In this document: positions 323 through 55,054 of the stretch, in pieces
How the letters are laid out: each line of letters begins with the position of its first letter
Position numbering within the stretch: position 1 is the stretch's first letter
Assembly (NCBI GenBank): GCA_001780985.1
Contig: MFJV01000001.1
Span: forward strand, 300,049-364,048
Direction: 5' to 3'
Origin: Candidatus Gottesmanbacteria bacterium RIFCSPLOWO2_01_FULL_43_11b
Lineage (GTDB): Bacteria > Patescibacteriota > Microgenomatia > UBA10105 > UBA927
DNA: 64,000 bases
Position numbers and translations under genes: made by a program
Notes under the pieces: model-generated
What the model saw: the letters and a program-made list of their open reading frames with translations, nothing else
The model's database searches: none
Told to the model about the DNA's origin: nothing

Positions 323-970
323 ATGCGTGAAAACTACTCTTTATTTCTTTTATTACCCTACTCACTTTTATCACTAAAGAGAACTCAAGTACATCATTTC
401 CCTCTTGACACCTTTATTAATAATGGTTTTACTGGATATATGGTTAATAAATTTCAAACGAATGCGTCTAATGTGCCGTATTATCTGAATAATCTGGAAA
501 TGTTATTTACCGATTTTTTACAGCAGGCGGGATCATCGGAAAAAACGCGGAAAAACTACAAAAGTGACGCGAATCATTTCTTAGGCTGGTTTATTTTCAA
601 ACTTGAATCCGCGGATCGTCTCCCTCATTCGCATATTGAATTCGTTCAGCGCATCACTCCGCGGTTCGTTGAGCAATATAAAACTTTTTTGCTAGTAAAC
701 AATATTCCAACAGCAACAATCAATCGCAGGCTCTCAACCATTCGAAGTTTTTTCAATTTCTGTCAAACACAAAAGTGGATTTCAGACAGCCCTGCTAAGA
801 ATCTTGCCACTGTTCGATCAAAAAAATTAGAACAGTCACGTTCCCAGGAAGACATACTTTCGTCATTTGCGCGGGATCTCAAAATGGAGGGTGCTTCAAG
901 GGCGACAATAAAAAATTACGTAAGCGACGTCCGGCTTTTTCTCCGTTGGAAAGATATTTATGCCGTTTAA
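323..970 (+). CDS. Protein of tandem phage-integrase-type N-terminal SAM-like (core-binding) repeats with no catalytic recombinase domain; probably joined by a +1 frame junction to the giant gene that follows
   Basis: 215-aa [29 protein letters not shown] ... [12 protein letters not shown] forms one complete core-binding-type helix bundle. A second N-terminal half follows ([28 protein letters not shown]). No R..HxxR..Y catalytic motifs. The stop overlaps the ATG of the 960 ORF, whose first 45 aa are a third copy of the same motif. Confidence 0.55.
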
Positions 971-3900
971 ACCTGCCAATCTCACCCAATACGAAGAACA
1001 CCTTGCTGACCAAGGATACTCTCCTGCAACAATTGCGCGAAAAAAAGCCTCTGTAGGTAAATTTCAACAGTGGGCTGATTCGCGGGAAACGATTACGATA
1101 CCGGCTGAAAACGAACACCCACGGAAAAGTCGCGCATGGATGTATGGAGTTTTGTTAGCACTTGGTGGTATTGGATTGCTAACCATGATCGTCATAGTAC
1201 TGTTGAATCAACAAAGCCGGGTAGCCCCAGCAATTACCAGCCGTGCAGTTGTTGTTGAACCAACACCTGGCACTCGGCCTACCCCGACTGCTACTCCTAC
1301 CCCAGAGGTAAGCACGGTTGCAAAATCTCAAGAGATCCCCTCATCTCAAGCATATACGATCAGCGGAGAGACTGTTACTATCACTACTTCCCCATTTAGC
1401 AACGGCGACATAACGCTCGCACCCGATGGTCAGGGACAGTTCCTCATTCGATCGAGTACAAGCACAGAGAATTCCGTAGATGTTCGCAATGCCAATTTAA
1501 CAACCGGTGCCCTTCTCTACGGGAATGTAGGTAACAGCAATCTTGGGTATGATTTCCTGCGCTTTACCAACGGCCCGGATGAAAAACTCCACTTCTCGGT
1601 CGATGCCTCCGGCAATACCTATATCGGAGGAAATGCAACGATTGAAAATATCCTGCTTGTCGATGAATTAAAGACTAAAGATGCCTCAGCCATACAGCTG
1701 GACAATGCCATCACGTTTAAAGATGCCGGTACGATATCAACAACCAATGGTAATTTGAATCTCCAACCCTCTGGAGTCGTGAATATTCCGGTAATTATCC
1801 AAAATCTCTCAACAAGTAACAGTGGGAGGGTGCAAATCAACGATGATTTACAAATCTATGGATCAGAATGGATTTCAGGGGGGTTAGATGTCAATGGTCG
1901 TACAATTCTCAACAGCAGCCTTCTCATTAAAAATGGTTATGGGCTGCCTGGGTTTGAATTTACTCTTGCCGGCGATGCGACAATTTCCGGAAGTCTTTCT
2001 CTTGCCCCGAACGTGCCGGGTTACGTTGGCACATGCGATTCAAGTAAAGCAGGACTGATCTATTATGATGGAGTTGTAAATATTCTGTACTATTGTAATG
2101 GAACAACATGGGTTTCTGCTGAAAGCGGTGTGGGCGGTCCCACCGGTGCGACTGGGGCGACTGGGGCAACGGGAGCCACCGGAGCGACAGGAACGGCTGG
2201 AGCTTCCGGCCCAACGGGTGCTACCGGAGCGACAGGCGGAGCTGGTCCGACTGGGAGCACCGGAGCAACGGGGGGTGCTGGTGCTTCTGGACCGACCGGG
2301 TCAACTGGTGCAACCGGTGGAGCCGGTATAGGTGGAGCAACGGGGAGCACAGGCTCTACGGGAACAGATGGACCAACCGGACCAACCGGGGCGACAGGGT
2401 CTGCTGGACCAACGGGAGCGACCGGAGCGACAGGAGATGGCGGTCCGACGGGATCCACGGGTGCAACCGGAGCAGATGGACCGACGGGTGCAACAGGCGC
2501 AACCGGAGCTACCGGTACTGCTGGAGCTTCTGGTCCAACCGGAGCGACCGGGCCAACAGGAGGTCCCGGTATTGGAGGGGCTACAGGAAGTACAGGTTCC
2601 ACAGGAGTTGAAGGGCCCACCGGAAGCACGGGGGCGACGGGAGCGAATGGACCCACAGGAAGTACCGGCCCCACTGGGTCAAATGGACCAACGGGGGCGA
2701 CGGGGGCCACGGGTGCAGCCGGAAGCGATGGGCCAACGGGAAGTACGGGGGCCACCGGAGGCGGGGGGCCAACCGGACCAACGGGAACAACCGGTGCTAA
2801 CGGACCAACCGGAAGTACAGGGCCGACGGGGGCCAATGGACCAACGGGAAGTACGGGGGCGACGGGAGCAACGGGAACGGTGGGAGCAAGTGGGCCGACC
2901 GGAAGTACAGGAGCAACAGGGGCTAGTGGGCCGACCGGAAGTACAGGAGCAACAGGAGCTAATGGACCGACGGGATCTACTGGTGCTACAGGCGCAACAG
3001 GGACCGCAGGTGCTTCCGGACCGACGGGAAGTACAGGTGCAACCGGTGGTAACGGACCCACTGGATCGACCGGACCGACGGGATCTGCCGGACCAACCGG
3101 AGCGACTGGTGCGACGGGGGCCACGGGCACTGCTGGTGCGAGTGGACCAACAGGGGCGACTGGGGCAACTGGTTCTAATGGACCAACGGGAAGCACAGGA
3201 ACTACCGGATCAAATGGTCCTACTGGAGCCACAGGCGCAACGGGAGCTACTGGTGCGGCAGGTGCTTCCGGTCCTACAGGAGCAACCGGGTCAACGGGAG
3301 GAGATGGTCCGACGGGAAGTACCGGTGCAACAGGAACAAATGGACCCACCGGTGCAACCGGAGCCACAGGCGCAACAGGTGCAACCGGCGCAAATGGGCC
3401 CACTGGGGCAACCGGAGCGACGGGCGCAACCGGAGCGACGGGAACCGCCGGCGCTTCCGGACCTACCGGCGCAACAGGAGCAACCGGCGCAACGGGAGCA
3501 ACCGGAGACAACGGTCCCACGGGAAGTACCGGCGCAACAGGTGCAACCGGAGGGGATGGTCCGACAGGTCCCACCGGGACAACGGGGGCTAATGGGCCGA
3601 CCGGTGCAACGGGTGCAACGGGTGCAACGGGTGCAAATGGGCCAACAGGATCGACAGGGGCAACTGGCGCAACAGGAACAGATGGGCCGACAGGATCAAC
3701 GGGTGCAACAGGAACGGGTGGCCTCGGTGGTGCAACGGGGGCAACGGGAGGAACAGGAGTTGCTGGTTCTTCCGGACCGACCGGGGCAACTGGCGCAACC
3801 GGGGGAACTGGCGCAACCGGGGTACAGGGACCGACAGGTACGACTGGTTCAACGGGAACAACGGGAGCAAACGGCCCAACTGGGATGACTGGGGCTACCG

Positions 3901-6900
3901 GCGAACGTGGTGCCGCGGGTGAAAATCTCTTTGATCAAACGAATAATCTTATTTACCCCTACCCTGTCGTCAATCGCAGTATTGCTTTGGGAAGCGACAT
4001 ATTTTCTCCCGCCGATGATCCGTCAACAACATCAACTGCGAGTGCCCTTATCATGCTCAATGGCGATAATGGACAGATCTGGGGAGCAGATACTACGATA
4101 GGAAAAAACATCCGGACCGACCTACGAGCACTTAGTAACGTCACCGATGTGTTCGTCTATGATACAAGCAAAGACTCCGACGCCGGATTATGGAGAAATG
4201 ATGATCGGGGCAAAGCAACAAGCTGGTACAACGAAACCATTGATAACCCGGCCGCCACCTGTGTCGTGGATACCGACGATCGCTGTGGCAACAGAGAGTT
4301 TCCAGCCAAAGCCATTATCGTCGTAACTACTACCAAAATGTATATATATGATGCATACGATAACACGCTGTGGATGGATTTCCGCAAAGGCGCGACCACG
4401 ATCGAGCAAATGATCGGGCCGACCGATAATTCCACAGGTTCCAGTGTCTGGGCGTTAAACGGCAAGATTTACTATGCAAATAACGGCTCGGTCGGAGGTC
4501 TCTATGTCATCGATCTTCTCAACGACCGTGCCTACAAATACGACGCCACTAATGATTACGTCGGCGACAAAACCGTGGGAACCAGAAATTCGACGGTCAC
4601 CTGGACGGCCGGACCATCATCACCCATCGTGAATGCAACGATCAATGATATCATGGCACGGGTCATCGGTGGAGACACATACGCTGTCGTAGGAACCGAT
4701 GCAGGTATGTCCGTCATTAACGAAACCGACCGCGCGGTCTTTGATTATGACGATGAGGTGGGAACGGCAGATAACGACTACAATAGCGTCTGGCTCGACC
4801 GTGATGGTAATCTCTGGGACCTCAACGAAACTGCGGGGCAGCTCGATAAATGGACAAACGTCATTGCTGACTCTGCCGATGAAAATCCCGGTAATCCGGA
4901 TACCGTCTGGGACGAATCCTCTACCCCGGCGCTTTTTGACAGCGCGCAAACGATAAACGTGGCACCTTCTGCCCTCACCGTCCGTGAGGGGACGAGTACG
5001 GTGGACGGAAAATCTCCGACCGTTTACGTCGGCCACAATGGCGGACTCACGGCGCTTTCTACCAAGGCAGATGATGAAACCAACGGCTCGGTCAAATATT
5101 ACACCAACTCATATATTACCGAAGAAATGATAGGAGATATCCGCGGCATGTGGCCTTTATACGGCAGTGGTTCCATTGCCGACGGAACCAACAATATCGA
5201 CGATGCCTCAGTCAAATCCGAAGAGCTCACCGCCAAAAATGCCAACGGCACAGGTCTTGCCTACGCCACAGGAGTACGGGGAACGGGAATAAGTTTTGAC
5301 GGAACCGACGATTATCTCTGTTCCGACACGAATGATGACGACACCTGCGACGACACAGCAAATCTTGAATTCGGCGCATCACCCACATTCTCCTACGGGA
5401 CATGGTTCAATGTTAATTCCTCCGGAGGGAATGAATGCGCCGTCAGTGATAAAAATGGGTGTGTAAACTCGACGGCCGGCTACTCCGTGTATAAGGATAC
5501 CACGGACAAGATTGTATGCCGCATCGCAGACGGAAGCAACGCCGCAACGGCCACAACCGTCGGGACACATGCCGACAGCCTTTGGCACCAGGTAACCTGT
5601 ACCGTGGATGGATCAAACATCCGAATCTACATCGATGGGATTCTTGACGCGACATCAAGTATTGCAACCGTGACTGGCTCAACCAACAACACATTACCAT
5701 TTATTATTGGGGGTCAGGGGTCACCAACCACCAATTTTTTCTCGGGATCTATTGACGATGTTTTCGTTACGGCGGAAGCTCTCACTCCGGGTCAGATCAG
5801 AAACCTATACCAAGTTGGCTACCGCGCTTCGCAAAACCATACAGCAGGACGAATTACAAATATCGGAGCGGATGATTATCAGCATCTTTTGGGAAATGCC
5901 TCCGGCGGCACCTCAACCAGTAGCCGTGTGTTTTCTGCCGCAGTCGATGATAGCAATCAATTTATTTATGCCGGAATCAACTCAAGCGGCGATAACACCG
6001 GTGGAGTGACGGTGCTTGGAATTGACAGCGACAGTGCTCTTGATCTTTATGACACAACGGCAAATACCAGTAAAGACGACGATATCGGTACGCAGTTTAA
6101 CGCCAGCGATGCGCTTGCGATATCTGTAGCTGGTGCTCCGTGCCCTGCGTACAACGGCGGCACGACCGCCTGCAACAATAGTGCCACCCTCGCAATCGCC
6201 GGAACTGACGATACGAACTATCGAGTCTGGATGGAGACGTCGGAAATATCACTGTATAACGCGCTTTCTCTTATCAGTAGTCCGTCACTCACGAAAAACA
6301 ATATGACCGTCAACAACATATTCACGATCTACAATACCTATAACAATCTGGATCAATCATCTACAGGAGAAACGATCCAAACCCCGGCGCTTTCCGTCGA
6401 CAGCAACGGGAACCTCGTCTACAACTATCTCGGCACATCAACAAGCGCAACAGCCATGGACTTCAACGATTCCGTACTCACTACAGGAACCATGCTTGAT
6501 CTAACTTCCACGACGCTCACGACGGGAGATGCGCTCAAAATTACCACAAACGCCCTCACGAGCGGCAATGCGCTCGATATTTCCTCAACGAGCACGGCCA
6601 TGACGGGCGATTTGGCGGCGATTACGCTTTCCGGAAGTAACGCTGCCAACACCGGCTCGCTTCTTTCTCTCACTAATAGTGGTACAGCTAATACCGGGGA
6701 GACTCTCTATATCAAACACTATGCTACCGGTACAAATAATCTCGCGATGCGCGTAGACGATGTAAGTAGCGATACGTCACCCTTTGTCATAGACGGCGCA
6801 GGCAACGTCGGCATCGGCCAGTCGGCGCCAGTCAGTCAACTTTATATTGGAAACAATGCCGACAGCTGGACCGATGCGTCCAACTCCCAGGTGACCATAG

Positions 6901-9900
6901 AAGGCGTTGATAATGAAACGACAGTCAAAGCGTTTTCGGTGAAAGATGAAAATGCAAACGAGTACTTCTTCCTTAGCTCCGTTGCCGGCTCTAACAACGG
7001 AATAGCATATTTCAAAGGCAATGTTGGCATTGGCGATACTGGTCCGGATTATCATCTGGAAATCAGCGATACCACCGATACTCCGGTTCTGGCCCTTTCT
7101 GATGATGATATCGCCCAGGGATTCACCACAGATGTAGCAGAGACAGACGTGTTTGCTCACCTTACCTCCCTCTCCACAACTGCAGGAGGAGTCCAGTTCA
7201 CTGCGCTTTCCGATACTGACGCTCAAGCCCTTTCCATCAAGGCCGGTATTGGATCTGCAACCCCTACGGATACGACGCCCGCGATCAAGTTTATCGGTGG
7301 TAAATTAAGTGGTACGACATTCGGCGATCTTGACGTCACCTCTGCAATCACGTCAACTACCGCAGAAACGGTCTTCCAAATTGCCAACAACAATGACACT
7401 GCGGGATTTACTATGTTGGGGAATGGAAATATAGCTATTGGTAATAATGTAAGCCCTTTGGGAAAACTGGTTATTACTTCAAATCCCTTAGGGTCCGACT
7501 ACACAACCGGCCACGCGGCACTCATCGTCGACCAATTTGAAACCCAGGATATTATCGCCGCATCCGCCTCTGGAGTACTTCGCTTCAAAGTAGAAAGCGA
7601 CGGAGATGTTGTTTCGCAACGGTTTATGGATTCGGCAGACAATACTTACCTCATAGATCCGGCGAACGCCAGCACGGCTCTTACCCTAGCAGGAAGTGCC
7701 GGAATCGGCGACACCACACCCGATTATCTTTTGGAATTATATGACGCAACCGCCACACCCGCGTTTGCTCTTTCCGATGATGATATCGGCCATGGGGTTA
7801 CTACCCTGGTCCAAACAGACGTCTTTGGGCATCTGTCCTCGGTCTCCTCGTCCGACGGGGGCCTACAAGTAACCGGACTGGCCGACGCTACGGGAATAGC
7901 GTTGGGGCTCAAAGGGGTTCAGTCTTCCAATCCGACAGACACAACACCTGCAATTTCACTCATCGGAACCAAAGCCAATGGCACGGGGGTTCAGGATTTG
8001 GATTCTGCAGAAACCGTGCTCCAAATAGCCAACAACGATAATACCGCAGCCCTGACAGTTCTAGGAAATGATTATGTCGGAATCGGGACAACCACCCCGT
8101 CAACCCCGCTTGAAGTTGCAATTAATAACGCCACCAATAACGACATTACCAATCTTTTAACCCTGACCCACACCACCTCCGGAACTGCCACAGGTGGCCT
8201 TGATGCTGTCCTTCTCCATATGGACGGAGATGATGCTTCAACGACTTTTACTGACGAATCAGGCAAAACATGGACAGCCAACGCCAATGCCCAGATTGAC
8301 ACGGCTCAAAGCAAGTTCGGCGGAGCATCGGGTTTATTTGACGGCACCGGTGATTACATTAACACCGCAGATCATGACGACTTTTATCTCGGCAGCAGAG
8401 ACTGGACCTTTGATTTCTGGATAAGACATGTATCAAATGCCACAGATGAATATATCTTTACTCAATATGCAGATGCCAACAATTATTTCTACATCCTGGC
8501 AAATGGAGGGGGAAATACGCTAGCTATCGTACAGGCAGATTCAAGCACAACCAGATGGTCATTCACAGCCCCGTGGAATCCGACAAACGCCACCTGGTAT
8601 CATGTCGCAATCGAAAGAGAAGGAAACACTCCAAGAATATTCATAGGCGGTGTAGCTCAAACTGTTACCGAGGTAACCACAATTGCCGGAAAAACGGCGG
8701 CTGACATTGCCGCAAGCCCAAGAATCGGGATAAACGGGGTGGGCAGCGCAGGTCTTAACGGCTGGCTGGATGATTTCAGGTTTACCAACGGCACTGCCCG
8801 CTGGAGCAGCAACTTCACCCCGCCGGCAAGCGCAGTCACCTATCAAGGGGGAACAGTCACCGGAATAGGGACAGGTCTTCTTTTCAGGACGGAAGATTCG
8901 GCCGGCAATACGGAAAACGCCGGCAGGATATATTCTGCTCTAAATAAAACCACCGACGGAGAGGAGACGTCCCAAATGACTTTTGAGACAAGAACCGGCG
9001 GAGCGGCTCTAACTCCCGCGATGAGACTTAACGGAATCGGGAATCTAACCCTAAAAGGTTCGCTAATTCAATCCAGCACACCGGATATTGCCGAAAATGT
9101 GATTGTGACTGACCCGACGGTTGAGGCGGGAGATATCGTGGTAATTGATCCGTCCTATCAACCGCCGGAGGGGGCCAATATTTATAACCGCTTTGCCGCC
9201 AAAAAGGCCGAGACACCCTATTCGCAGCAGCTTCTGGGAGTAATTTCGCAGGACCCGGGAATTATTCTTAATGCCCCTGAAGACGCGGTTGATACCGGCG
9301 AGCAAAGTGCTGCCAACGAGCGGCCTTTGGCTATTGCCGGCCGTGTTCCGGTCAGGGTTTCCACAATTAACGGCAATATTAAAAATGGCGACGCCATTAC
9401 CGCCTCGATGATTCCCGGAGTCGGGATGAAGGCAACCGGCGAAGGCAATATCGTAGGCCGCGCTCTGCAGGCATTTAGCTGTGAATCTCCCGATACTCCC
9501 TGCGAGGGCAAAATCCTTGTCCTTGTGTCCACTTCCTGGCATAAACCCAAAATTTTTGAAGAGGGCGGGATAATAACCACGATCATCCAGGACGCCCAAA
9601 CTTTGGTGTATCAGGTGGTGCAAACGACGGCCGAGGGCATTGACCGGATCGCCGAGGAGATTGGAGTTTACGCCAATTTAATCGCGGCAAACATTAACGC
9701 GGGACTGATTGAAACAAAAGAACTCAAAACCGATACTCTCTCTCCCATTGCTTCGGATAGCGCAGGGATCGCCGTACGCCTAGGGCCGGAACAAACGTTT
9801 ACCATCACCGACAGAGAAGGCACTCCGTCTGCACGCTTTGACAACTTGGGGAACGCTACATTCTCTGGTGAACTAACTGCGAGTGAAGCAAGTATTTCCG

Positions 9901-10658
9901 GCAATTTATATGCTGACCGTGTTCAGACTTCGTTTGGAGATTTAGATGCTCGGCTGATTGGTCTCGAAGCGTCAATTTCAGCTATTGGTTACATTGCTCC
10001 ACCTGATGAGTCAACAAGTTTAGCAACCAATGTTCCTGACCTCACCGTCGCCAATAATCTAACCGTCTACGGACAGACGAGTTTAGGCCCCGTAAGTGTT
10101 GCCGGATCTCTCCTTGTTGATGGCGTCATACAGTTGTCGCAGCAGGGAATCGACTTTCTCGGTGACACGTTAGATTTTCTCAGCGGCGTTCTTCGCCTAA
10201 GTGCAAACAGAATTGAAGTCGGCGCGCCCATTGCTCCCATTCCAGGCCAAGATCTCACGATAGATCTCGAAAAACCGTCATCCGGCTTCGGCACGCTTCT
10301 CGTCAAAGGAAATGTTTACACTGAGGGCAATATCGCTGCCCGAAGTGCCACTGTCTCGGGCGAACTCACCACCCGAAAGCTCATTATAGCTAACGATCAA
10401 GCCTCACCAAGTGCGGAACTATCTGAAATTTCAAGTAACGCGACAGTCGGAGTCGGCACAATACAAGCTGAATCACTCGAAGTAACTATTCCCACTACTG
10501 CAGTAACAGATTCATCATACATCTATATCACACCGACAACTTCTACAAATAACCAAGTACTATATGTAAAGTACAAGATCGCCGGAAGCGGATTCGTTGT
10601 CGGATTTGATCAAATTGTTCCTGCTGATGTGGAGTTTAACTGGTGGGTGATTAATTAA
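960..10658 (+). CDS. Giant membrane-anchored surface protein (3232 aa) with N-terminal SAM-like segment, signal-anchor TM helix, Thr/Pro linker, collagen-like Gly-X-Y region, two LamG/ConA-like lectin domains and tail-fibre-like repeat modules
   Basis: Uninterrupted 9.7-kb ORF. TM helix [23 protein letters not shown] at ~1138-1210. [10 protein letters not shown] linker. About 200 GXY triplets. LamG motifs ([22 protein letters not shown] ... [21 protein letters not shown]; [10 protein letters not shown] ... [20 protein letters not shown] ... [15 protein letters not shown]). Repeated NVGIG(D/Q)(T/S)xP modules. Confidence 0.85.
2130..3920 (+). repeat. Collagen-like Gly-X-Y triplet repeat (about 200 triplets, mostly GPTG(A/S)TGATG) inside the giant gene, highly repetitive at DNA level
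   Basis: Continuous G-x-y periodicity from ...[14 protein letters not shown] to ...[14 protein letters not shown]. Reverse-strand Pro/Val/Ala-rich ORF 2090..3574 and +-strand ORFs 2098..2331 and 2332..3888 are frame shadows of this repeat. Confidence 0.85.
6780..8110 (+). repeat. Three tandem, diverged ~100-150-aa tail-fibre-like modules within the giant protein
   Basis: Module starts [17 protein letters not shown]..., [48 protein letters not shown]..., [47 protein letters not shown].... Each ends in ...QIANN(N/D)(D/N)TA(G/A)(F/L)T(M/V)LGN. Confidence 0.5.
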
Positions 10659-10705
10659 CTTTACAACTTACAACTTTACAACTTATAACTTGATAATTTA
10701 CAACT
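10657..10705 (+). repeat. Imperfect heptamer array (T)TTACAAC x ~6 directly upstream of the four-helix-bundle gene start
   Basis: aactttacaacttacaactttacaacttataacttgataatttacaact, ending 5 nt before ATG 10711. Confidence 0.8.
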
Positions 10706-10710
10706 AGGTA

Positions 10711-11070
10711 ATGAAAAAATTTCGTTTTCTCGAGTGGAAAGTTTACAAAGACGCGAAGAATCTATTCGCTAGACTCCTTACGATTGTTAAAAGACTTCCA
10801 AAAGAATATCGTTTTGAATTGGGAAGTCAGATTATTAGATCGGGACTTTCTGTTGTGCTCAATATAGCCGAGGGAAGTGGGAAAAATTCAGATAAGGAAC
10901 TTAACCGTTATTTCGATATCTCCCTTGGGTCATTACATGAAGTTTTGGCATGCATTGATGTACTGAAAGACAATAAGCTTATAACAGAAAAAGAGTTTAA
11001 TGATATTTTTACTTTAGTAAATGAAATTTCCAACCAATTAGGAGGCTTCAAGAAAGTTGTTAAGTTGTAA
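10711..11070 (+). CDS. Four-helix-bundle protein (TIGR02436 / 23S rRNA intervening-sequence protein family; DGR Avd-like fold)
   Basis: 119 aa. Family-typical LxxA..L...VV.L...I.R.......LNIAEGSG....KE...F..ISLGSL.E....I.V. The last four residues are encoded by the downstream repeat array. Confidence 0.8.
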   Translation: MKKFRFLEWKVYKDAKNLFARLLTIVKRLPKEYRFELGSQIIRSGLSVVLNIAEGSGKNSDKELNRYFDISLGSLHEVLACIDVLKDNKLITEKEFNDIFTLVNEISNQLGGFKKVVKL

Positions 11071-11096
11071 GTTGTAAGTTGTAAGTTGTAAGTTGC
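11056..11096 (+). repeat. Heptamer array (GTTGTAA) x ~5.5, the inverted complement of the array at 10657..10705
   Basis: gttgttaagttgtaagttgtaagttgtaagttgtaagttgc. Overlaps the last codons and stop of 10711..11070 and lies 5 nt from the stop of the pilin gene on the minus strand. Confidence 0.8.
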
Positions 11097-11100
11097 GTAG

Positions 11101-11580
11101 TTAATCCGCACACAATTTATATTCCCCGGGGGTAGGGGTGGGATATCCGCAGCGGGCTTGGCTCGCTCCGATATCTGCGTCTGAGGCGTTCTCAAGAACA
11201 ACTTTTGCCAGAAAATCATCTGTATCAGTCGGTTTAAGAGGATGCCGGTTATACAAATACTCGACCGGTAGATTTTTCATGTACACGGTCTCTCCGCCCG
11301 ACGGCCCTGCTTGAAAAGGACCTGTCTGGGAACAGGCTGACGTCCCCGTAGTCCCACAGCCATTGATGAGAGTGCCTGTGCCGCTCGGGTAACTATTAAA
11401 GTCATTGTAATAGAGCCGAAGAGCACTTTTGAGCTCCCGCAGTTCCGCTTTTCTCTTGGCATCTTTAGCCCGCTGTCTGGCTCCAAGAAAATTTGGAAGT
11501 GCTACACCCACGAGGGCGGCAATAATCGTTATGACAACCAGAAGTTCGATAAGTGAAAAACCTTTCTTACTATTTTTCAT
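11101..11580 (-). CDS. Type IV pilin / pseudopilin-like protein with class III (prepilin peptidase) signal peptide
   Basis: MKNSKKG|FSLIELLVVITIIAALVGVALP. G-1/F+1/E+5 motif and hydrophobic N-terminal helix. Confidence 0.75.
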   Translation of the reverse strand: MKNSKKGFSLIELLVVITIIAALVGVALPNFLGARQRAKDAKRKAELRELKSALRLYYNDFNSYPSGTGTLINGCGTTGTSACSQTGPFQAGPSGGETVYMKNLPVEYLYNRHPLKPTDTDDFLAKVVLENASDADIGASQARCGYPTPTPGEYKLCAD

Positions 11581-12122
11581 GGATCGTTTATGAGTGTTCT
11601 TCCTGTATTTGGTGTTGTATTGGTACTACTCCTTCCATAATTACACAATTTTGTCCCGCAGTACAGGTTTTGGTACGCTTGGGGCGTACTGCCGCTTTTT
11701 TGTACATCTGCATCATCGGTATTTTCCAATCGTGCATAGAGCTGGTAGGAATTATTTCCACCACCGACATCATAATAGTACGAGTGAATTGCAATTGGAT
11801 CTTCGGGAAGTTCTACCATGTAGATCGTGTTGTTTTGATCTTTAAATTCCTCTCCCCATTCGCATACTGTTGCCCCGGCTGACCCGCACGCAGTAATCTT
11901 ACCTCCGCTATTATCATTCGGGTATTTACCGGTGTCGTTAAAATAAAGCTCGAGAGCAGAAGTAACATTTTTTATATCCGTTTTCCTTCGGCTATCACGG
12001 CTTTTGGTTTGGGATGATCGGAATGTCCCAAGTCCGAGGGTAATGAGTATCGCCAAAATCAGAATGACGACGATTAACTCTATGAGTGTAAATCCGCGCG
12101 ATTTCAAAAGTTTATTATTCAT
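11577..12122 (-). CDS. Type IV pilin-like protein (start trimmed to the internal Met; the long upstream extension is judged spurious)
   Basis: MNNKLLKSRG|FTLIELIVVILILAILITLGL prepilin motif. ATGA overlap with the downstream pilin gene. The upstream 96 codons of the track ORF (11577..12410) are Ala/Arg-rich and overlap the neighbouring gene. Confidence 0.7.
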   Translation of the reverse strand: MNNKLLKSRGFTLIELIVVILILAILITLGLGTFRSSQTKSRDSRRKTDIKNVTSALELYFNDTGKYPNDNSGGKITACGSAGATVCEWGEEFKDQNNTIYMVELPEDPIAIHSYYYDVGGGNNSYQLYARLENTDDADVQKSGSTPQAYQNLYCGTKLCNYGRSSTNTTPNTGRTLINDP

Positions 12123-12156
12123 AGTTGTTAGTTGTTCGTTGTTTAGTTGTCGGTTA
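12123..12156 (+). repeat. GTTGT-type heptamer array (agttgtt agttgtt cgttgtt tagttgt cggttat) in the 34-nt gap between two pilin genes, directly upstream of start 12122 on the minus strand
   Basis: Same motif family as the arrays at 10657..10705 and 11056..11096. Confidence 0.6.
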
Positions 12157-12882
12157 TTATGGGCACCAGTTGTCTGGATTCCTGCAAGCCTCGACACAGG
12201 TAGCGACATCGTCAAAAGACGCCGGACAGCCACTCTGCTGCGGGTTAGTGTACGTATTGCAGTCACCTCCCGGCGTGCAAGCCAAACTCCCATAATACCC
12301 ACTCGCCGGCGTTGGCGTTGGGCCGCCGCCGCCATCACCACCACCGTCACCACCCGGTGTGGGCGTTGGCGTTGGGCCGCCGCCGCCATCACCACCACCG
12401 CCAGGAACAAACCCTTCTGCTACAACCGAAACACCTACCGAATTACAAAAATTGTATCCCTCCCCCCACCCACATCCCTCGACGGGGTCACAGCCAAGCG
12501 AGGTAATGGCAGGATCGCTCGTGTCTTTGAGGGAAGCGCAGGCGCGGTACCCCAAACAGGGATTTGCTTCCGGCACGTATAAATAGGGCTGTTTCGTAGA
12601 GGGGTCACAAGGAATTTTATCAAGGTATGGAACCAGTGTTGCTGCGCCGCAACTATCGAGAATTCCAGAGTCGGGGTAACACCCCTTGTCATTGTAGTAC
12701 TCTTCAAATGCAGTACGTATTGCATTAAGGTCGCTTTTTCGCTTCGCATCATAGCCCCTATCAATTTGTCGTTTCCAGTTAAAAAGGGCAACGACGGTAA
12801 ACAGAACCAGGATAATCGCAATTGCGATCAGGAGTTCTGCCATCGTCCACCCCTGCCTGCCGGCAGGCTGGCCTTCTTTCAT
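12157..12882 (-). CDS. Type IV pilin-like protein with Gly/Asp and Pro/Thr low-complexity repeats (start trimmed to Met16 of the track ORF 12157..12927)
   Basis: MKEGQPAGRQG|WTMAELLIAIAIILVLFTVVALF with E+5. Internal GGGGDGGGGPTPTPTPGGDGGGDGGGGPTPTP. Confidence 0.65.
   Translation of the reverse strand: MKEGQPAGRQGWTMAELLIAIAIILVLFTVVALFNWKRQIDRGYDAKRKSDLNAIRTAFEEYYNDKGCYPDSGILDSCGAATLVPYLDKIPCDPSTKQPYLYVPEANPCLGYRACASLKDTSDPAITSLGCDPVEGCGWGEGYNFCNSVGVSVVAEGFVPGGGGDGGGGPTPTPTPGGDGGGDGGGGPTPTPASGYYGSLACTPGGDCNTYTNPQQSGCPASFDDVATCVEACRNPDNWCP
12308..12402 (+). repeat. Direct tandem duplication (~54 nt unit, 1.75 copies) inside the pilin-like gene, encoding GGGG(D)GGGGPTPTPTP
   Basis: ggcgttggcgttgggccgccgccgccatcaccaccaccg occurs twice in tandem. 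Confidence 0.7.
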
Positions 12883-13204
12883 ATAGTTTTTAGTATGACA
12901 TGGATATTGACTCTGTGCAAATATCAATACTACTATAGTATATACAATGCTGCCTCAGAAACGCCTGCTACTTCTGCTATCAGTTATTGTCGTTCTCCTC
13001 TACGTTGGACTCAATGTCGCAATCTATCTCTGAGGCACAACGATCTCTCAAAGCAAATTCGGGAAAGCAGCCACGAATCTTTCCATCATCAAAGAACAAA
13101 AAAAACCACAATCAACACAAACCACTAGGGAAATCCCCTTCACCCCCCAACAAGTTGTCCTCCCAAGTGGCTCTCAAACATACCGTTTTTCCCACGGAAA
13201 AGAC

Positions 13205-15842: not shown

Positions 15843-16052
15843 ATGCCGCTTGTTTGGGATTATCCGAAAGCTAAACTCACGAGATCCCGCCGCGGTTCCG
15901 TACTACTTCTTGAGCGATTGATTAATTTTGGACCGGGAAAAGGAGAAAAAATTCACCTGCGGAAAGTAAAAGAACACTGGGGGGCCCTCCGCTTGTTTCC
16001 GAACAAACGGCGGCTCATGGAGCTTTTCTTATGGGGAAAGCCACAATCTTAA
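15843..16052 (+). CDS. Small hypothetical protein directly upstream of and overlapping an AbiEii toxin gene; possibly a truncated or remnant AbiEi-type antitoxin
   Basis: 69 aa. Overlaps 16031 ORF by 22 nt. No confident family match from sequence alone. Confidence 0.3.
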   Translation: MPLVWDYPKAKLTRSRRGSVLLLERLINFGPGKGEKIHLRKVKEHWGALRLFPNKRRLMELFLWGKPQS

Positions 16053-16693
16053 CACCGAGACAAACTGAGCTCATACGGGCACTTTGCGCAGACACATTTT
16101 TCACCGACACGTTTTATTTTACCGGAGGAACTGCGCTTTCAGAGGTGTATCTCAAGCATCGCAAAAGCGAAGATCTGGATTTTTTTTCCGCCCGCACGTA
16201 TGATCCCCAACGAATTCTCCACGCGTTAACGCGGTGGTCCAAAACACAAAGATTTTCTATCAAAACGGACTTTGTCGAGCCTACGCATATCTACGTGCTG
16301 ACATACCCCGATGGCCACGCTGTCAAAGTGGACTTTGCTACATATCCCTACCCAAGCCTCGATACGCCAAGCCGGTATCGGGATACCTTGTCCGTGGACA
16401 GCCTGTTTGATATTGCCGTCAACAAACTCGTAACCATTACCCAACGCACGGAGGTGAAAGATTTTGTAGATCTTTATTTTCTATTCCGGCAGTTTACATT
16501 TTGGACCCTCCGGGACGGCGTTAAAACCAAATTTAATATCGAGATAGATCCATATGGAGTTGCCTCAAATTTCATGGCTGTAGAAGACTTTGATTTCCTT
16601 CCGATCATGCATACCCCATTGACCCTACAGGCGCTCAAAATGTTTTTCCGGACCAAGGCAAAAGATCTGGGGAAAAAGAGCATCGCCCCTTGA
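16031..16693 (+). CDS. abiEii: AbiEii / AbiGii-family nucleotidyltransferase toxin (type IV TA system, DUF1814)
   Basis: FYFTGGTALSEVYLKHRKSEDLDFFS matches the GGTAL...RxSxDLDF nucleotidyltransferase signature of the family. Confidence 0.75.
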   Translation: MGKATILTPRQTELIRALCADTFFTDTFYFTGGTALSEVYLKHRKSEDLDFFSARTYDPQRILHALTRWSKTQRFSIKTDFVEPTHIYVLTYPDGHAVKVDFATYPYPSLDTPSRYRDTLSVDSLFDIAVNKLVTITQRTEVKDFVDLYFLFRQFTFWTLRDGVKTKFNIEIDPYGVASNFMAVEDFDFLPIMHTPLTLQALKMFFRTKAKDLGKKSIAP

Positions 16694-51119: not shown

Positions 51120-52844
51120 TTGTATGATGAGTTCATGTCTTCAAAATTTTTGATCTCATTCCTCTTTGTCATTGCCTTTCTCCTCCGCCTTCTCCTTGTT
51201 CCCAATCCTGGTTTTGAGGCGGATGTATCATTCTGGAAGTCGTGGGGGCTTGCAACGAGAGATTTTGGCATTGTCGAGGGTATCAAGCAAACGAACAATA
51301 ACTACCCTACTCCCTTTGCCTACACATTGGGGCTCATGGTGAAGCTCTATAGTCTGTTTGCCGATCCGCATAATTTTAACGAATTTTGGCAAAATACCAA
51401 TCTCACGTTTTTAGCCATAAGTAAACTCTTTCCAATTCTTGCTGATCTGGGTATCGCGGCGATTATTTTATACATGGGCCAAAATACCCTCTCTTTGCTT
51501 TTGGCAGTTTTCTACTTATTCAATCCCGTTTCTTTAATTGATGGCGCCTGGTGGGGACAAGTTGACTCCCTCGGCGTATTTATATTTCTTATCGCACTTC
51601 TTCTGTCGCTCAAACGGCAGCCTTTTTGGGCTGGCGCTGTTTTCATGTTATCGATGATGACGAAATTACAGAACATGATTTACGGCCCACTTTTCTTCCT
51701 CTTCATCTGGCAATCTCTTGGATTTGACGGGTTAAGAAAAGCGATACTTGGTGCAACGGTTGGATTTTTTGGGTTGAATATTGAGTTCTTTTTGTCAAAA
51801 AATATGGACCGGGTGATCGCGTCATTAACGTCTAACTACGACTACTTCCCTTGGATGAGCCTCAATGCGTTTAACGTTTGGTGGATTGTTTCAGGAGGCC
51901 ATGGCATGCAGGTATCCGATAAACTACTGGCAATCGGGATTGTCAACGCCAAAACCGTTGGGCTTCTTATGTTTTCCAGCTTTTATCTTTTCGCATTAGT
52001 CCGACAACGGAAAAATCTGCAGAGTTTTTTGGAAAGTTTAATCATTGTCAATGCATCGTTTTTCCTGTTCATGACCGAATCCCATGACCGATATCTCTTC
52101 CCTACATCCGTATTTCTTCTTCTCTGGGCGCCATTTTATAAAAATTTCCGCGTGTTCTCTGTCTTTTATATTCTTTTTTCTCTCGTCTATTTCTACAACC
52201 TCCATAGCGCCCTCGTCTTTAACTACCCAAATAACGGTCTACCGGGGCTTTCCCAATTAATACAACCCACCGTAACAATCACCGCATCGGTCTTACTTAT
52301 CGCGCTATTTGTTATATTTCTTCTCTTTCTCACTCGTTATTCTCTTGCTGTCTTTGCTGTAATTGTTTTAGGAATCACTGCCCTCAACTTTCCTTTATAC
52401 GCCAAACAGCCTATGTCTTTAACAAAATTCACTCCCTACATTAGCACTCAGGATTTTGGTAGCAGGCAAACCAACAAATCAGTCAACAGCAGTTACGGCA
52501 TCAACAGTTGGAATCGTCTTTCCGTCCAGTACATGTTCTATAAGAAAGGCATAGGAACGCACACAAACTCCCGTCATGTCTTTGCTATAAACAGCAAATT
52601 TAAGCGTTTCTCAACTGATTTCGGCGTCGATACGGAATCAGGACCTCAGGCTTCCGTTATTTTTGAAATCTATGGGGACGACAAACTTCTCTTTCGATCC
52701 GAAACAATGAAAAAATACGATTATCCCCGTCATACGGAAGTCAATATCGAAGGGATTAAGTTTCTATCGCTTGTTACAACAGATGCGGGAGATGGAAATA
52801 TCGATGATCATACTGATTGGTTGAACCCAATGCTGTATCCATGA
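51120..52844 (+). CDS. Polytopic membrane glycosyltransferase-like protein with C-terminal NPCBM/NEW2 carbohydrate-binding domain
   Basis: N-terminal ~450 aa multi-TM. C-terminal GIGTHTNSRHVFAINSKFKRFSTDFGVDTESGPQASVIFEIYGDDKLLFRSETM...IEGIKFLSLVTTDAGDGNIDDHTDWLNPML matches the NPCBM pattern (GIG.HA.S...F.L......F...VG.DD.......V.F.V.GDG..L..S..M......V.V...L.L.V.DAGDG...DHADW). Confidence 0.7.
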   Translation: MYDEFMSSKFLISFLFVIAFLLRLLLVPNPGFEADVSFWKSWGLATRDFGIVEGIKQTNNNYPTPFAYTLGLMVKLYSLFADPHNFNEFWQNTNLTFLAISKLFPILADLGIAAIILYMGQNTLSLLLAVFYLFNPVSLIDGAWWGQVDSLGVFIFLIALLLSLKRQPFWAGAVFMLSMMTKLQNMIYGPLFFLFIWQSLGFDGLRKAILGATVGFFGLNIEFFLSKNMDRVIASLTSNYDYFPWMSLNAFNVWWIVSGGHGMQVSDKLLAIGIVNAKTVGLLMFSSFYLFALVRQRKNLQSFLESLIIVNASFFLFMTESHDRYLFPTSVFLLLWAPFYKNFRVFSVFYILFSLVYFYNLHSALVFNYPNNGLPGLSQLIQPTVTITASVLLIALFVIFLLFLTRYSLAVFAVIVLGITALNFPLYAKQPMSLTKFTPYISTQDFGSRQTNKSVNSSYGINSWNRLSVQYMFYKKGIGTHTNSRHVFAINSKFKRFSTDFGVDTESGPQASVIFEIYGDDKLLFRSETMKKYDYPRHTEVNIEGIKFLSLVTTDAGDGNIDDHTDWLNPMLYP

Positions 52845-55054
52845 AAGATAATAAACGAAAAGTGAGTCAAAATTTTTCGCGCGCAATCATCCGAGTCAGC
52901 GAGGGCGTGAGCACGAAAAAATTTTGGGCGAACTTTGTGGGATTCGCACTCCTTCTTTTTTCCATAGGCTTTAACCTGTGGATCTACCGCCTCGAACCCA
53001 CTGCAAAAGTAGATCCGAATGATAATCATTTTCAATTTGCATTAGTTGATCGGACGAACCAAATCTTTGATTTTGCACCTAAAAATTGTTCAAAAAAATT
53101 GTCATTTGTCATTTGTCATTTGTCATTTCTTATTGATCACTGGGTGCCCAATTGGGCTGAAGGCTATAACCTCCCCTACTACTATTCCCACATCCCTCAA
53201 ATTGCTATCGTCGCTTTCTGGCGTTCGTTACATATCGGATCTTTATTTCAGTTTTATCATTGGGTTATTTATTTTCTTCTCTCTCTATTTCCACTTTCTT
53301 TATTTCTTGCACTTCGTATCACAGGACTTTCCTGGATAACAGCCGGGGTCGGAGCATTAATAGGATCTCAAATCTCTACCGACGGCTTCTACGGCCTGGA
53401 TCCAGCTTCATTCCTCTGGCGCGGGTACGGGCTTTCAAGCCAACTCTTTGCCATGGTTTTCTTACCGCTTGCAATTGCATTTGCTCTACGAGGCAAAGTG
53501 ATTCCAACGATCCTCACACTTGCCGCTACCACCGCCGGACATCTTGGAATCGGTATTATTGCATTCATAAGTGTTGGTATTGTAGGATTCCGAAAAGTTT
53601 TGTGGATTTGGGTGGGCGCGGGACTGCTCCTTGCCTACTGGATTATTCCGGCATATCTTCACAATAATTACCATAATTTCTCTGTCTGGGATCCTATCTG
53701 GAAATTTGATTCGTATGGTGCAAAAGAGGTCATCACAAGACTCTTTAACGGCAACCTATTCGACTTCGGAAGATTCCCAATTTTGACAATACTTGTATTG
53801 GTGGGATTGTTTGTAAACCGAAATTTTGCCATTCTATTTATTTTTTGGGTGCTCATGTATTTCGGAAGAACAACGTGGGGGTCACTCATCGACCTTGTTC
53901 CCTTTTTGAAAGAATTTCACCAATCTCGCTTTATCGTCGGAATTCACCTAGCCGGATTGTTTCTTATTCCGATTGGTTTCCAATTTCTCTTTCAAAAATT
54001 AAAAAATATCTTTCTTGTTATCCCTATAATTATTTTATTTATTTTCATGATTTATCCCCAAACGACGCGCTATGCTAAACATAACGATTTTTTGATTAAC
54101 CGCGGCAATGCGGACTATCAAAAAGTGGAAGATGACGTGGATTCTTTATTCTTAAATCTTAAATCTTACCTCTCTGCCCGCCCGGGGAGGGTATTTGCAG
54201 GGAGAGGAGGATCTTGGGGACGTGATTTTCGCGTTGCTGAAACCCCCTATTACATGTTCCTTTCTACACATGGAATTTCAACAGTTTTATGGATGCCGGA
54301 AACATGGTCACCAAGCTCTGATACCGAACAGTTCTTCAGTGAAAATCAACCGAAAGATTACGTTCTATTTAATATTAGATACGTAGTAGCGCCACCCAAT
54401 CAACAACCGCAATCATTCTGGAAATTACTCAAAGAGTCACCCACCTGGAAACTCTATGAAGTTGAAACGGAAGGCTACATATCCTCCGGAGTTCGTCCGG
54501 CTATTGTCAGCAGTTCGAAAGAAAACTTTATTAATCTTGTCCACTTATGGATCCAATCAGACTATCACAAGCAAGGTCTTTACCCGCAGTTAATCTTTGA
54601 CAAAGACTATCCAAAAAATTACGGCCTGCCGAATTTCAGAATGCTCGACGAAGTTACCTATAAAGTTCCGGACGGAAGCACCCACAATCTCTTTTCCGAA
54701 GTTCCCAGTTATATGTTGTCAGTTGACAGTTATCAGTTACCAAAAATTCTTTCTCAGGAATCGGACTCTGATATGGTCTTTAAAGCCAAAGTTGAGGTCA
54801 AAGAAGACTGTAAAGAATGTATTGTCATCCTCAAGCAAACCTTCCACCCGTCCTGGCGTGCCACCATCGATGGTAAGCCTGTCGAACCCATCACCGCCTT
54901 CCCCTTCTTTACCGCGGTCAAACTGGAATCAGCGGGAACACACGAAGTCATCTTTTCCTACCAACCATCGGGGATCAAAATAGCGCTCCTTATCGTTTCC
55001 GTCATCAGTCTGGGCGCTCTCTTCGCCCTCACTTCTACTGGCCAGAACCAGTGA
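52841..55054 (+). CDS. Large polytopic membrane protein (putative GT-C-like) containing a heptamer tandem repeat
   Basis: ATGA overlap with the upstream gene (MKDNKRK start, trimmed from the track ORF 52817..55054). More than 12 TM helices and a C-terminal soluble domain. Its 3' end overlaps the convergent giant gene by 20 nt. Confidence 0.65.
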   Translation: MKDNKRKVSQNFSRAIIRVSEGVSTKKFWANFVGFALLLFSIGFNLWIYRLEPTAKVDPNDNHFQFALVDRTNQIFDFAPKNCSKKLSFVICHLSFLIDHWVPNWAEGYNLPYYYSHIPQIAIVAFWRSLHIGSLFQFYHWVIYFLLSLFPLSLFLALRITGLSWITAGVGALIGSQISTDGFYGLDPASFLWRGYGLSSQLFAMVFLPLAIAFALRGKVIPTILTLAATTAGHLGIGIIAFISVGIVGFRKVLWIWVGAGLLLAYWIIPAYLHNNYHNFSVWDPIWKFDSYGAKEVITRLFNGNLFDFGRFPILTILVLVGLFVNRNFAILFIFWVLMYFGRTTWGSLIDLVPFLKEFHQSRFIVGIHLAGLFLIPIGFQFLFQKLKNIFLVIPIIILFIFMIYPQTTRYAKHNDFLINRGNADYQKVEDDVDSLFLNLKSYLSARPGRVFAGRGGSWGRDFRVAETPYYMFLSTHGISTVLWMPETWSPSSDTEQFFSENQPKDYVLFNIRYVVAPPNQQPQSFWKLLKESPTWKLYEVETEGYISSGVRPAIVSSSKENFINLVHLWIQSDYHKQGLYPQLIFDKDYPKNYGLPNFRMLDEVTYKVPDGSTHNLFSEVPSYMLSVDSYQLPKILSQESDSDMVFKAKVEVKEDCKECIVILKQTFHPSWRATIDGKPVEPITAFPFFTAVKLESAGTHEVIFSYQPSGIKIALLIVSVISLGALFALTSTGQNQ
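53092..53126 (+). repeat. A7 homopolymer followed by (TTGTCAT)x4 heptanucleotide tandem repeat inside a coding sequence
   Basis: caaaaaaattgtcatttgtcatttgtcatttgtcatttc, encoding ...KKLSFVICHLSFL.... Confidence 0.8.

Follow-up and report, generated by a model that had tools for sequence, protein, structure and literature searches.

A four-helix-bundle protein gene between inverted heptamer arrays in Candidatus Gottesmanbacteria: a probable counterpart, outside rRNA, of rRNA intervening sequences

In a 64,000-nucleotide (nt) stretch of the genome of Candidatus Gottesmanbacteria bacterium RIFCSPLOWO2_01_FULL_43_11b (contig MFJV01000001.1, positions 300,049 to 364,048), referred to here as the window and numbered from its first letter, a gene for a 119-amino-acid (aa) four-helix-bundle (4HB) protein is bracketed by two arrays of tandem heptamers, the one the inverse complement of the other. 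The host is a member of the Candidate Phyla Radiation (CPR). The element very probably belongs to a widespread class of such bracketed cassettes, met with in hundreds of bacterial genomes. The reading that we favor, with somewhat more belief than doubt, is that it is a promoterless cassette of the intervening sequence (IVS) type located outside rRNA, and that the stem its two arms can make forms in the host transcript and is processed by RNase III. The novelty resides less in the window locus than in what it brings to light, a regular association of PF05635 genes with inverted heptamer arrays across operons, tRNA clusters and rRNA.

The upstream array (10657-10705) consists of the successive units aac, tttacaac, ttacaac, tttacaac, ttataac, ttgataa and tttacaac, after which come taggt and the ATG at 10711, and Tandem Repeats Finder gives it a period of 7 (6.5 copies) or of 15. 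For the downstream array (11054-11095) the same program gives the unit AAGTTGT, with a period of 7, 5.9 copies and 97% matches. The codons GTT GTT AAG TTG TAA (11056-11070) are within this downstream array, and so the repeat itself encodes the VVKL and the stop of an open reading frame (ORF) whose product ends ...GGFKKVVKL. The initial annotation of this DNA, made from the sequence without database searches, had described inverted arrays bracketing a 4HB gene, the first of them 5 nt before the ATG, and the repeat-encoded VVKL and stop, and was correct in every detail. Matches to the 14-mer TTACAACTTACAAC, with at most two mismatches allowed, number five in the window and all are in the two arrays, while shuffles lead one to expect 0.48 and none of 100 reached five. 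The TAA stop of the co-oriented 3232-aa ORF upstream (10656-10658) is inside the 5′ arm, and the complement of the TAA stop of the convergent pilin-like gene downstream (11101-11103) is inside the 3′ arm; with the stop codons of both neighbors within the outer arm ends, the cassette occupies the entire 442-nt gap of the convergent pair. Since the identical cassette is present in seven independent metagenome assemblies, an assembly artefact is excluded, and among these seven assemblies of the same population there is no polymorphism in array copy number. A consensus scan between the 3232-aa ORF and the 4HB gene found neither a promoter of its own nor an intrinsic terminator, and there is no Rho-independent terminator (a short GC-rich hairpin with a U tract) at the arms, the sequence past the 3′ arm being GTTAATCCGCACAC. 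Rfam at its gathering threshold detects no rRNA or other family in the window, and the flanks of the cassette are protein-coding genes.

The arms have inverted-repeat matches of 16 nt (100%), 24 nt (96%) and 23 nt (87%), the last pair reaching past the arrays to ATTAAC...GTTAAT, and no other inverted repeat of 20 nt or more within 700 nt exists anywhere in the 64-kb window. The minimum free energy fold of 10645-11110 pairs the two arrays, with a z score of -6.1 and none of 100 shuffles equally stable, which bears out the earlier proposal that they could form a long stem. The arm-arm RNA duplex, of about 50 base pairs (bp), amounts at this locus to -51.3 kcal/mol in the sense strand and -44.4 kcal/mol in the antisense strand, the sense duplex being the stronger owing to four G·U pairs. 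Among the defining criteria of rRNA IVSs are terminal inverted repeats able to enclose the insert in a long stem, and such repeats are present at the window locus.

The flanks of 80 homologous loci were read by eye, and quantitative tests were done on 75 non-redundant loci, with the arm test being a local alignment of the 90 nt upstream to the reverse complement of the downstream flank. Nearly all of the 80 have an array of 7-nt units upstream and the inverse array downstream, the unit varying by locus (TAACAAC/GTTGTTA, TGACCTA/TAGGTCA, ACGACTA, ATGACAG, GCAGCTT/AAGCTGC, AACGTGT/ACACGTT, GGTCTAG and others). Native pairs have a median arm score of 34, compared with 15 when the downstream flank is shuffled, 15 in direct orientation and 17 for arms taken from different loci; complementarity is above the 99th percentile of shuffles in 63 of the 75 loci, and the native partner ranks first in 25 of them (median rank 4 of 74). 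In both flanks identity at lag 7 is 0.46 and at lag 14 is 0.42, against a background of about 0.28. Both arms are close to the ORF: the median distance from the end of the 5′ arm to the start codon is 15 nt (10 nt or less in 27 of 63 loci), and that from the stop to the beginning of the 3′ arm is +3 nt, with overlap of the ORF end in 26 of 63. For the CPR clade the unit is NNAYRAC upstream, on the sense strand, and GTYRTNN downstream, and its polarity is fixed: of the 75 loci, 42 have AYRACnnAYRAC upstream and 43 have GTYRTnnGTYRT downstream, with the reverse seen in 1 and 0 respectively. Relatives in Omnitrophota, Planctomycetota and Bacteroidota have other units and polarities, and their 5′ arms are G/T-rich or mixed; even relatives at about 70% identity bear different units. 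The C-terminal tails of relatives, VVKL, VVSCKL, VVKLLSCKL and LLSCKLLSCKL, are translated (GTTGTAA)n and so are independent evidence of array conservation. Across the homologous loci the association is strong, in the direction that a 4HB gene implies inverted arrays. It is hardly credible, then, that these are functionless slippage microsatellites lying by chance on both sides of a gene: heptamer simple sequence repeats (SSRs) are indeed over-represented and slippage-variable in many bacteria (PMC4692102, PMC4990558), but inverted complementarity in excess of shuffles at 63 of 75 loci, with none in direct orientation, the precise placement with respect to start and stop codons and the retention of the arrangement across phyla are not what chance would yield.

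The genes on either side of the homologous cassettes point to residence in transcription units. Within 400 nt the upstream neighbor is co-oriented at 62 loci and divergent at 4, the downstream neighbor is co-oriented at 61 and convergent at 12, and the spacers, of about 30-60 nt, are essentially array. Host junctions recognized by Pfam are pilB/pilC, groES/groEL, atpD/atpC, gap/rpiB and DUF4015/scpA, while the nearest relatives of the window protein (77-81% identity) are encoded in ino1-4HB-orf and fabK-like-4HB-acyltransferase operons with gaps down to 14 and 4 nt and with units that are also of the ACAAC type. Two cassettes are inside 16S rRNA genes in sense orientation according to Rfam (L062 and L073), and a third is so by eye (L066, from its flanks ...GGCATGCAAGTCG / GACGGGTGAGTA...). 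Inside rRNA, an insert has to be removed or tolerated at the RNA level. These rRNA-internal relatives with their inverted heptamer arms, together with the matching layout of the Coxiella 23S IVS considered below, uphold the likeness to rRNA intervening sequences that had been drawn at the outset.

Six further loci are between co-oriented tRNA genes, the cassettes again being in sense orientation. In two syntenic Nitrospirota tRNA clusters, Ser-Ser-Arg-Ser-Ser (L041, 2863-5031, and L044, 1745-3502), the cassette is in different spacers, which implies gain or loss at the DNA level. The ‘empty’ and the other spacers of these clusters have ORF-less inverted-heptamer hairpins (GGTGAAT/ATTCACC, AGTTYGN and GCAACNN), with the unit differing from spacer to spacer. 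A deaminase-like ORF, recognized by eye, is also within the cluster. Heptamer hairpins are general spacer elements of polycistronic transcripts, and some have a 4HB gene in the loop. The many unrelated operon junctions and the different tRNA spacers also lend support to the ‘insertable module’ of the initial annotation. When the cassettes are grouped by host junction the clustering is weak, with within-junction identity of 55-70% against a background of 52%; vertical inheritance and re-insertion both seem to occur, and some same-junction pairs are nearest neighbors.

The protein itself is a clear member of its family, with profile scores of 97.2 bits for PF05635, 23S_rRNA_IVP (cut-off 33.8), and 93.5 bits for TIGR02436 (cut-off 24). 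Its best relative in PDB is 2GSC, which is XCC0516 of Xanthomonas campestris (E = 3e-6), followed by 2RLD (E = 3e-4). The 2GSC assembly is a homopentameric four-helix bundle, to which the window protein is tied by sequence similarity only. At E <= 1e-3 the subfamily has 919 protein clusters, GTDB contigs (one genome per species) contain at least 477 of its loci, and the motifs NIAEGSGK and QLGGFKK are invariant in it. Close pairs differ mainly at synonymous codons (synonymous to non-synonymous differences of 10:0, 32:20, 25:12, 15:5 and 10:3, and 52:23 between the window gene and that of L208), which indicates that the protein is under purifying selection. Weak matches to PF22296 and NF033474 reflect the superfamily that it shares with Avd, the accessory protein of diversity-generating retroelements (DGRs). 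Identity as a DGR Avd was rejected, since the NF033474 score is 37 bits against an equivalog cut-off of 80 and no reverse transcriptase domain is nearby (none in the 12 other ORFs scanned between 323 and 20160); there is also no template/variable repeat near the 4HB gene. Other assignments were tried and set aside as well: an anti-phage defense system (no PADLOC model matches at E <= 0.01), a phage origin (a relative is encoded by just one viral contig), and membership of the class formed by repetitive extragenic palindromes (REPs) and REP-associated tyrosine transposases (RAYTs), as there is no Y1 (IS200/IS605-like) transposase and the PF05635 gene is the only ORF between the arms. Coordinates are collected in Table 1.

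Table 1. The cassette and its immediate neighbors in the window
Feature	Position	Strand	Remarks
Upstream co-oriented 3232-aa ORF	960..10658	+	Likely source of transcription for the promoterless cassette
5′ arm	10654..10705	+	A/C-rich array of 7/8-nt units, (T)TTACAAC, class NNAYRAC, plus outer ATTAAC
Spacer TAGGT, 5 nt, from arm to ATG	10706..10710	+	Weak AGG Shine-Dalgarno-like core only
119-aa 4HB gene, PF05635 23S_rRNA_IVP / TIGR02436	10711..11070	+	Last 5 codons, including the stop, inside the 3′ arm
3′ arm	11054..11105	+	G/T-rich array AAGTTGT x5.9 plus outer GTTAAT
Convergent pilin-like gene (N_methyl motif)	11101..11580	-	Its end is the outer edge of the 3′ arm

How the cassette may work can be pictured as follows. 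Read-through from the upstream giant gene would transcribe it and, once the 3′ arm has been made, the arms would pair, imperfectly, into a stem of about 50 bp with its base at the stop codons of the two neighbors. Most likely RNase III would act on this stem as it does on those of rRNA intervening sequences, cutting the cassette RNA loose and giving the host RNA a structured end. The 5′ arm, A/C-rich and free of start codons, may double as the leader of the 4HB gene, and the G/T-rich 3′ arm would supply its stop. As the stem can form on either strand, it could also cap the 3′ ends of both convergent units. The cassette itself has the support of its sense orientation in host units, the strong stem, the occurrence of the same design in rRNA, and the ORF-less versions in tRNA spacers. 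From these we infer that the stem probably forms in RNA rather than in DNA and is cut by RNase III, as it is in Coxiella.

Several results weigh against RNA-level processing of this kind. In the arms of the homologous loci G·U and A·C mismatches are symmetric (90 and 80), and comparison of sense and antisense duplex energies favors the sense strand at 35 loci and the antisense strand at 24 (p = 0.15). With no asymmetry of either type, selection on the sense RNA helix specifically is not demonstrable, and transversion mismatches amount to about 10% of the aligned arm positions. The next gene of the operon is frequently 4-45 nt past the 3′ arm, and cleavage would leave it almost leaderless. The window cassette, between convergent genes, comes last in its transcription unit, a position from which the host has no need to excise it. 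Arrays of the same class also occur solo, before other genes and within ORFs, as described below, which implies roles for the heptamers that do not require pairing.

The lack of sense/antisense asymmetry is what would be expected if the arms were the DNA-level terminal inverted repeats of a small transposable or site-specifically inserted element, for which pairing in RNA is irrelevant. The occurrence of one type of cassette in many unrelated junctions, its presence/absence difference between the syntenic tRNA clusters of L041 and L044, and the symmetric outer ends, ATTAAC and GTTAAT, also accord with that possibility. It is nevertheless quite improbable: the cassette has no transposase or recombinase, just the helical protein of 119 aa, the arms vary greatly in both length and sequence, target-site duplications were not seen, the ‘empty’ sites of the two tRNA clusters bear other hairpins and so are not clean empty sites, and the 62:4 sense bias points to dependence on host transcription.

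The positions of the arms with respect to the ORF invite a translational interpretation, in which the A/C-rich array is a Shine-Dalgarno (SD)-independent, unstructured leader for ribosome loading, of the class of the TAACTGA arrays. The 3′ array would sequester this leader once the transcript is complete, or unless ribosomes at the ORF end keep it open, and the outcome would be a tuning of 4HB translation instead of cleavage. Both the closeness of the 5′ arm to the start codon (0-10 nt at 27 of 63 loci) and the overlap of the 3′ arm with the ORF end (26 of 63) are in keeping with it, as are the fixed polarity in CPR (42 and 43 of 75, with the opposite in 1 and 0), a solo array, likewise of NNAYRAC class, that abuts a pilin-like ATG at 12122, and the association between start-codon arrays and scarcity of SD sequences reported by MacGregor in 2015 (PMC4679880). 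However, a 4-nt SD core is present in 7% of the homologous 4HB genes and in 11% of control ORFs from the same contigs, and with the motif equally rare in both, the arrays replace nothing that is otherwise needed, so that the A/C-rich arm as an SD replacement proved uninformative. Furthermore, 5′ arms in Omnitrophota, Planctomycetota and Bacteroidota are G/T-rich or mixed, and neither the rRNA-internal cassettes nor the ORF-less tRNA hairpins are explained. The interpretation, which the initial annotation had named as an alternative, is on balance doubtful yet still a serious competitor.

The initial annotation had also implied that the arrays are specific for 4HB genes, and this is contradicted. 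A metagenome scan for exact (TTACAAC)x3 gave 80 readable loci among the matches listed, which include some eukaryote-like microsatellites, and at none of these 80 is a 4HB gene within 150 nt. They comprise 8 ORF-less hairpins, 30 arrays in long open frames, 39 solo or other cases and 3 with an inverted partner array, 150-900 nt downstream, again without a 4HB gene. Perfect (TTACAAC)n arrays in frame within conserved protein-coding genes are seen in L091 (at about 826), L098 (at about 808), L104, L107, L115 and L123; the hosts, by eye, include enolase-like and KsgA/RsmA-like ORFs, and the arrays encode TYNLQLTTYN-like loops. The ORF-less hairpins of L099, L100, L112, L116, L121, L122 and L128 have an A/C-rich heptamer array and its inverse within 60 nt, and judging by eye from flanking peptides, two of them are in spacers of ribosomal-protein or ssb-rpsR-type operons.

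The window has its own arrays of this sort, with nine occurrences of NNAYRAC x3 (at most one mismatch) where 0.29 are expected. A solo array on the minus strand at 12122-12150 (ATAACCG, ACAACTA, AACAACG, AACAACT and AACAACT) abuts a pilin-like ATG (MNNKLLKSRGFTLIEL...); it is of the NNAYRAC class, like the 5′ arm of the cassette, has no inverted partner and resembles the TAACTGA-type ‘forward’ arrays of MacGregor 2015. Two more are within the 745-aa membrane-protein ORF at 52817-55054, (TTGTCAT)x4.3 at 53099-53128 and GTTRYCA x5 at 54706-54739, and encode LSFVICHLSF and SYMLSVDSYQL, the latter resembling the LSVISYQ peptide repeats of ‘reverse’ TAACTGA arrays within ORFs. Start-codon arrays of other genes are known from the literature as well. 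That arrays might turn up unrelated to 4HB genes had been named beforehand as the outcome to count against an association; for the arrays as such that is what was found, while the converse, from 4HB gene to arrays, is strong.

Avd proteins bind nucleic acid, and with a pentameric relative in mind the arrays might be multivalent RNA or DNA sites for an Avd-like 4HB protein that regulates its own expression and has a genome-wide partnership with its sites like that of RAYTs with REPs. The unit NNAYRAC is conserved from CPR to Coxiella, and the 384 kb on either side of the homologous cassettes contain 34 arrays of period 7 against 0, 2, 2, 0 and 0 for periods 5, 6, 8, 9 and 10. These flanking arrays have more hexamers in common with the arms of the cassette that they accompany than with those of other cassettes (0.32 against 0.15, p = 0.003), but about half of the extra arrays per contig are of unrelated heptamer types. 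In Xanthomonas, whose genome has 186 GGGAATC arrays and 70 close convergent pairs (PMC4692102), one array overlaps the start codon of XCC0516 (supplementary table of PMC4692102); as XCC0516 is the best PDB match of the window protein, this is a direct tie of the Xanthomonas arrays to the 4HB family. The three different heptamers among the ORF-less hairpins of one tRNA operon, the different units of relatives at about 70% identity, and the absence of a 4HB gene from beside all 80 listed exact arrays make such binding rather unlikely all the same. Comparably speculative is the broader notion that PF05635 genes and heptamer hairpins are two halves of one widespread system, in which the bracketed gene would be ‘autonomous’, the ORF-less hairpins, solo arrays and short rRNA IVSs would be non-autonomous derivatives, and the pentameric protein would bind, maintain or spread the arrays or modulate RNase III processing.

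The window has other features that merit mention. The 3232-aa ORF has collagen-like G-x-T/G-P-T-G triplet repeats at 2090-3900, where GC content is 0.64 against about 0.43 elsewhere, and a Laminin_G_3 domain near its C-terminus; a second giant ORF, of 2983 aa (55035-63986, minus strand), ends the window. In a 215-aa ORF at 323-970, which runs into the start of the first giant ORF, the SAM-like N-terminal domain of phage integrases is the only one present, and the N-terminus of that giant ORF (960-1100) is by eye similar. There is an AbiEii-family nucleotidyltransferase toxin gene (type IV toxin-antitoxin) at 16031-16693, and a third pilin-like ORF (12157-12927, minus strand) has a Gly/Asp/Pro/Thr-rich low-complexity tail (GGGGDGGGGPTPTPTPGGDGGG...) and no Pfam match.

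To our knowledge, no function has been assigned to the S23p proteins encoded by IVSs since the early 1990s, and the excess of heptamer repeats in bacterial genomes, though repeatedly noted, is as far as we know unexplained. With the coupling described here the two puzzles become one question: is RNA processing directed by the stem, and are heptamer arrays what the 4HB protein acts on? With its heptamer arms and 4HB gene, the IVS architecture is not a peculiarity of rRNA; across CPR and other phyla it is a general sense-oriented cassette of tRNA clusters, rRNA and highly expressed operons. The notion of two halves of one system, if true, would explain the function of the IVS protein, the heptamer SSR excess and the multi-copy 4HB genes of CPR, cyanobacteria and Bacteroidota. 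For annotation, PF05635 cassette genes are not DGR Avd genes. For assembly, contig breaks within heptamer arrays are of relevance, as two contigs (L001 and L007) end or start inside arrays, i.e. the arrays break assemblies. Repeat-based screens such as CRISPR-array detection may pick up heptamer arrays. 23S rRNA IVP has been listed as a CRISPR-array-associated gene in a large clustering study (PMC10910872), and this might be due to repeat finders picking up the flanking arrays.

Among known systems, the heptamer SSRs (TAACTGA, GGGAATC, and Nostoc GGGGAYT and short tandemly repeated repetitive sequences) share with the window locus period-7 arrays that abut start or stop codons and are often in inverted hairpin pairs, and the window arrays do have the at least two tandem period-7 units, abutting start or stop codons, by which that class is defined. 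TAACTGA (= TGATAAC) arrays, with stops in all three frames, are a few nt 5′ of start codons in Beggiatoaceae, cyanobacteria and Bacteroidetes (PMC4679880). The TGATAAC unit fits the NNAYRAC class of the window cassettes. The GGGAATC arrays of Xanthomonas include some at groES/groEL, and there are 70-75 cases per genome of close convergent (inverted) pairs (PMC4692102). As the window unit, TTACAAC, is not G-rich, no G-quadruplex is expected. The studies of heptamer SSRs make no link to 4HB genes, whereas the window arrays are a matched inverted pair around one gene, and no literature linking heptamer arrays with 4HB genes was found, in an incomplete searchable literature.

The DGR protein bAvd is of the same superfamily, but the window gene has no nearby reverse transcriptase or template/variable repeat. 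With REPs, their paired form the REPIN, and RAYTs, the cassette shares a gene between inverted copies of a repeat, further copies of which are scattered as ORF-less hairpins in operon spacers. However, a RAYT is a Y1 transposase and a REP is a fixed palindrome, whereas the cassette has a small helical bundle and variable tandem heptamers. The stem-loops for selective RNA processing and stabilization are, like the cassette, strong and intercistronic in operons for complexes of unequal stoichiometry (groES/EL and atpD/C), but unlike it have neither an ORF in the loop nor heptamer arrays.

The closest parallel is with the rRNA IVSs of Coxiella, Leptospira and CPR, which like the window element have a PF05635 ORF in the loop of a stem, upstream heptamers, no promoter and sense orientation in the host transcript. 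In the 23S IVS of Coxiella burnetii, in helix 45, the S23p ORF is in the loop of a 28-bp terminal stem, 3-4 tandem GACAGAT heptamers, their number varying among strains, are directly 5′ of its ATG, and RNase III cleaves the stem in vitro where the first repeat starts, with cleavage sites mapped by rapid amplification of cDNA ends (PMC4990558). Read as AGATGAC, this heptamer fits NNAYRAC, and it recurs in one of the homologous loci (L016). 23S_rRNA_IVP ORFs have also been reported in insertions in CPR 16S and 23S rRNA (PMC11270868). The rRNA IVSs are within an rRNA gene, whereas the window element is between two convergent protein-coding genes and so is not a member of the class in the strict sense. 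Its stem, of about 50 bp, is built almost wholly of heptamer units, unlike theirs, and whereas the Coxiella S23p ORF is in decay and apparently not translated, that of the window element is intact and subject to purifying selection. With all other tested IVS features present, the window element is best classed with the IVS-type 4HB cassettes, as a variant located outside rRNA.

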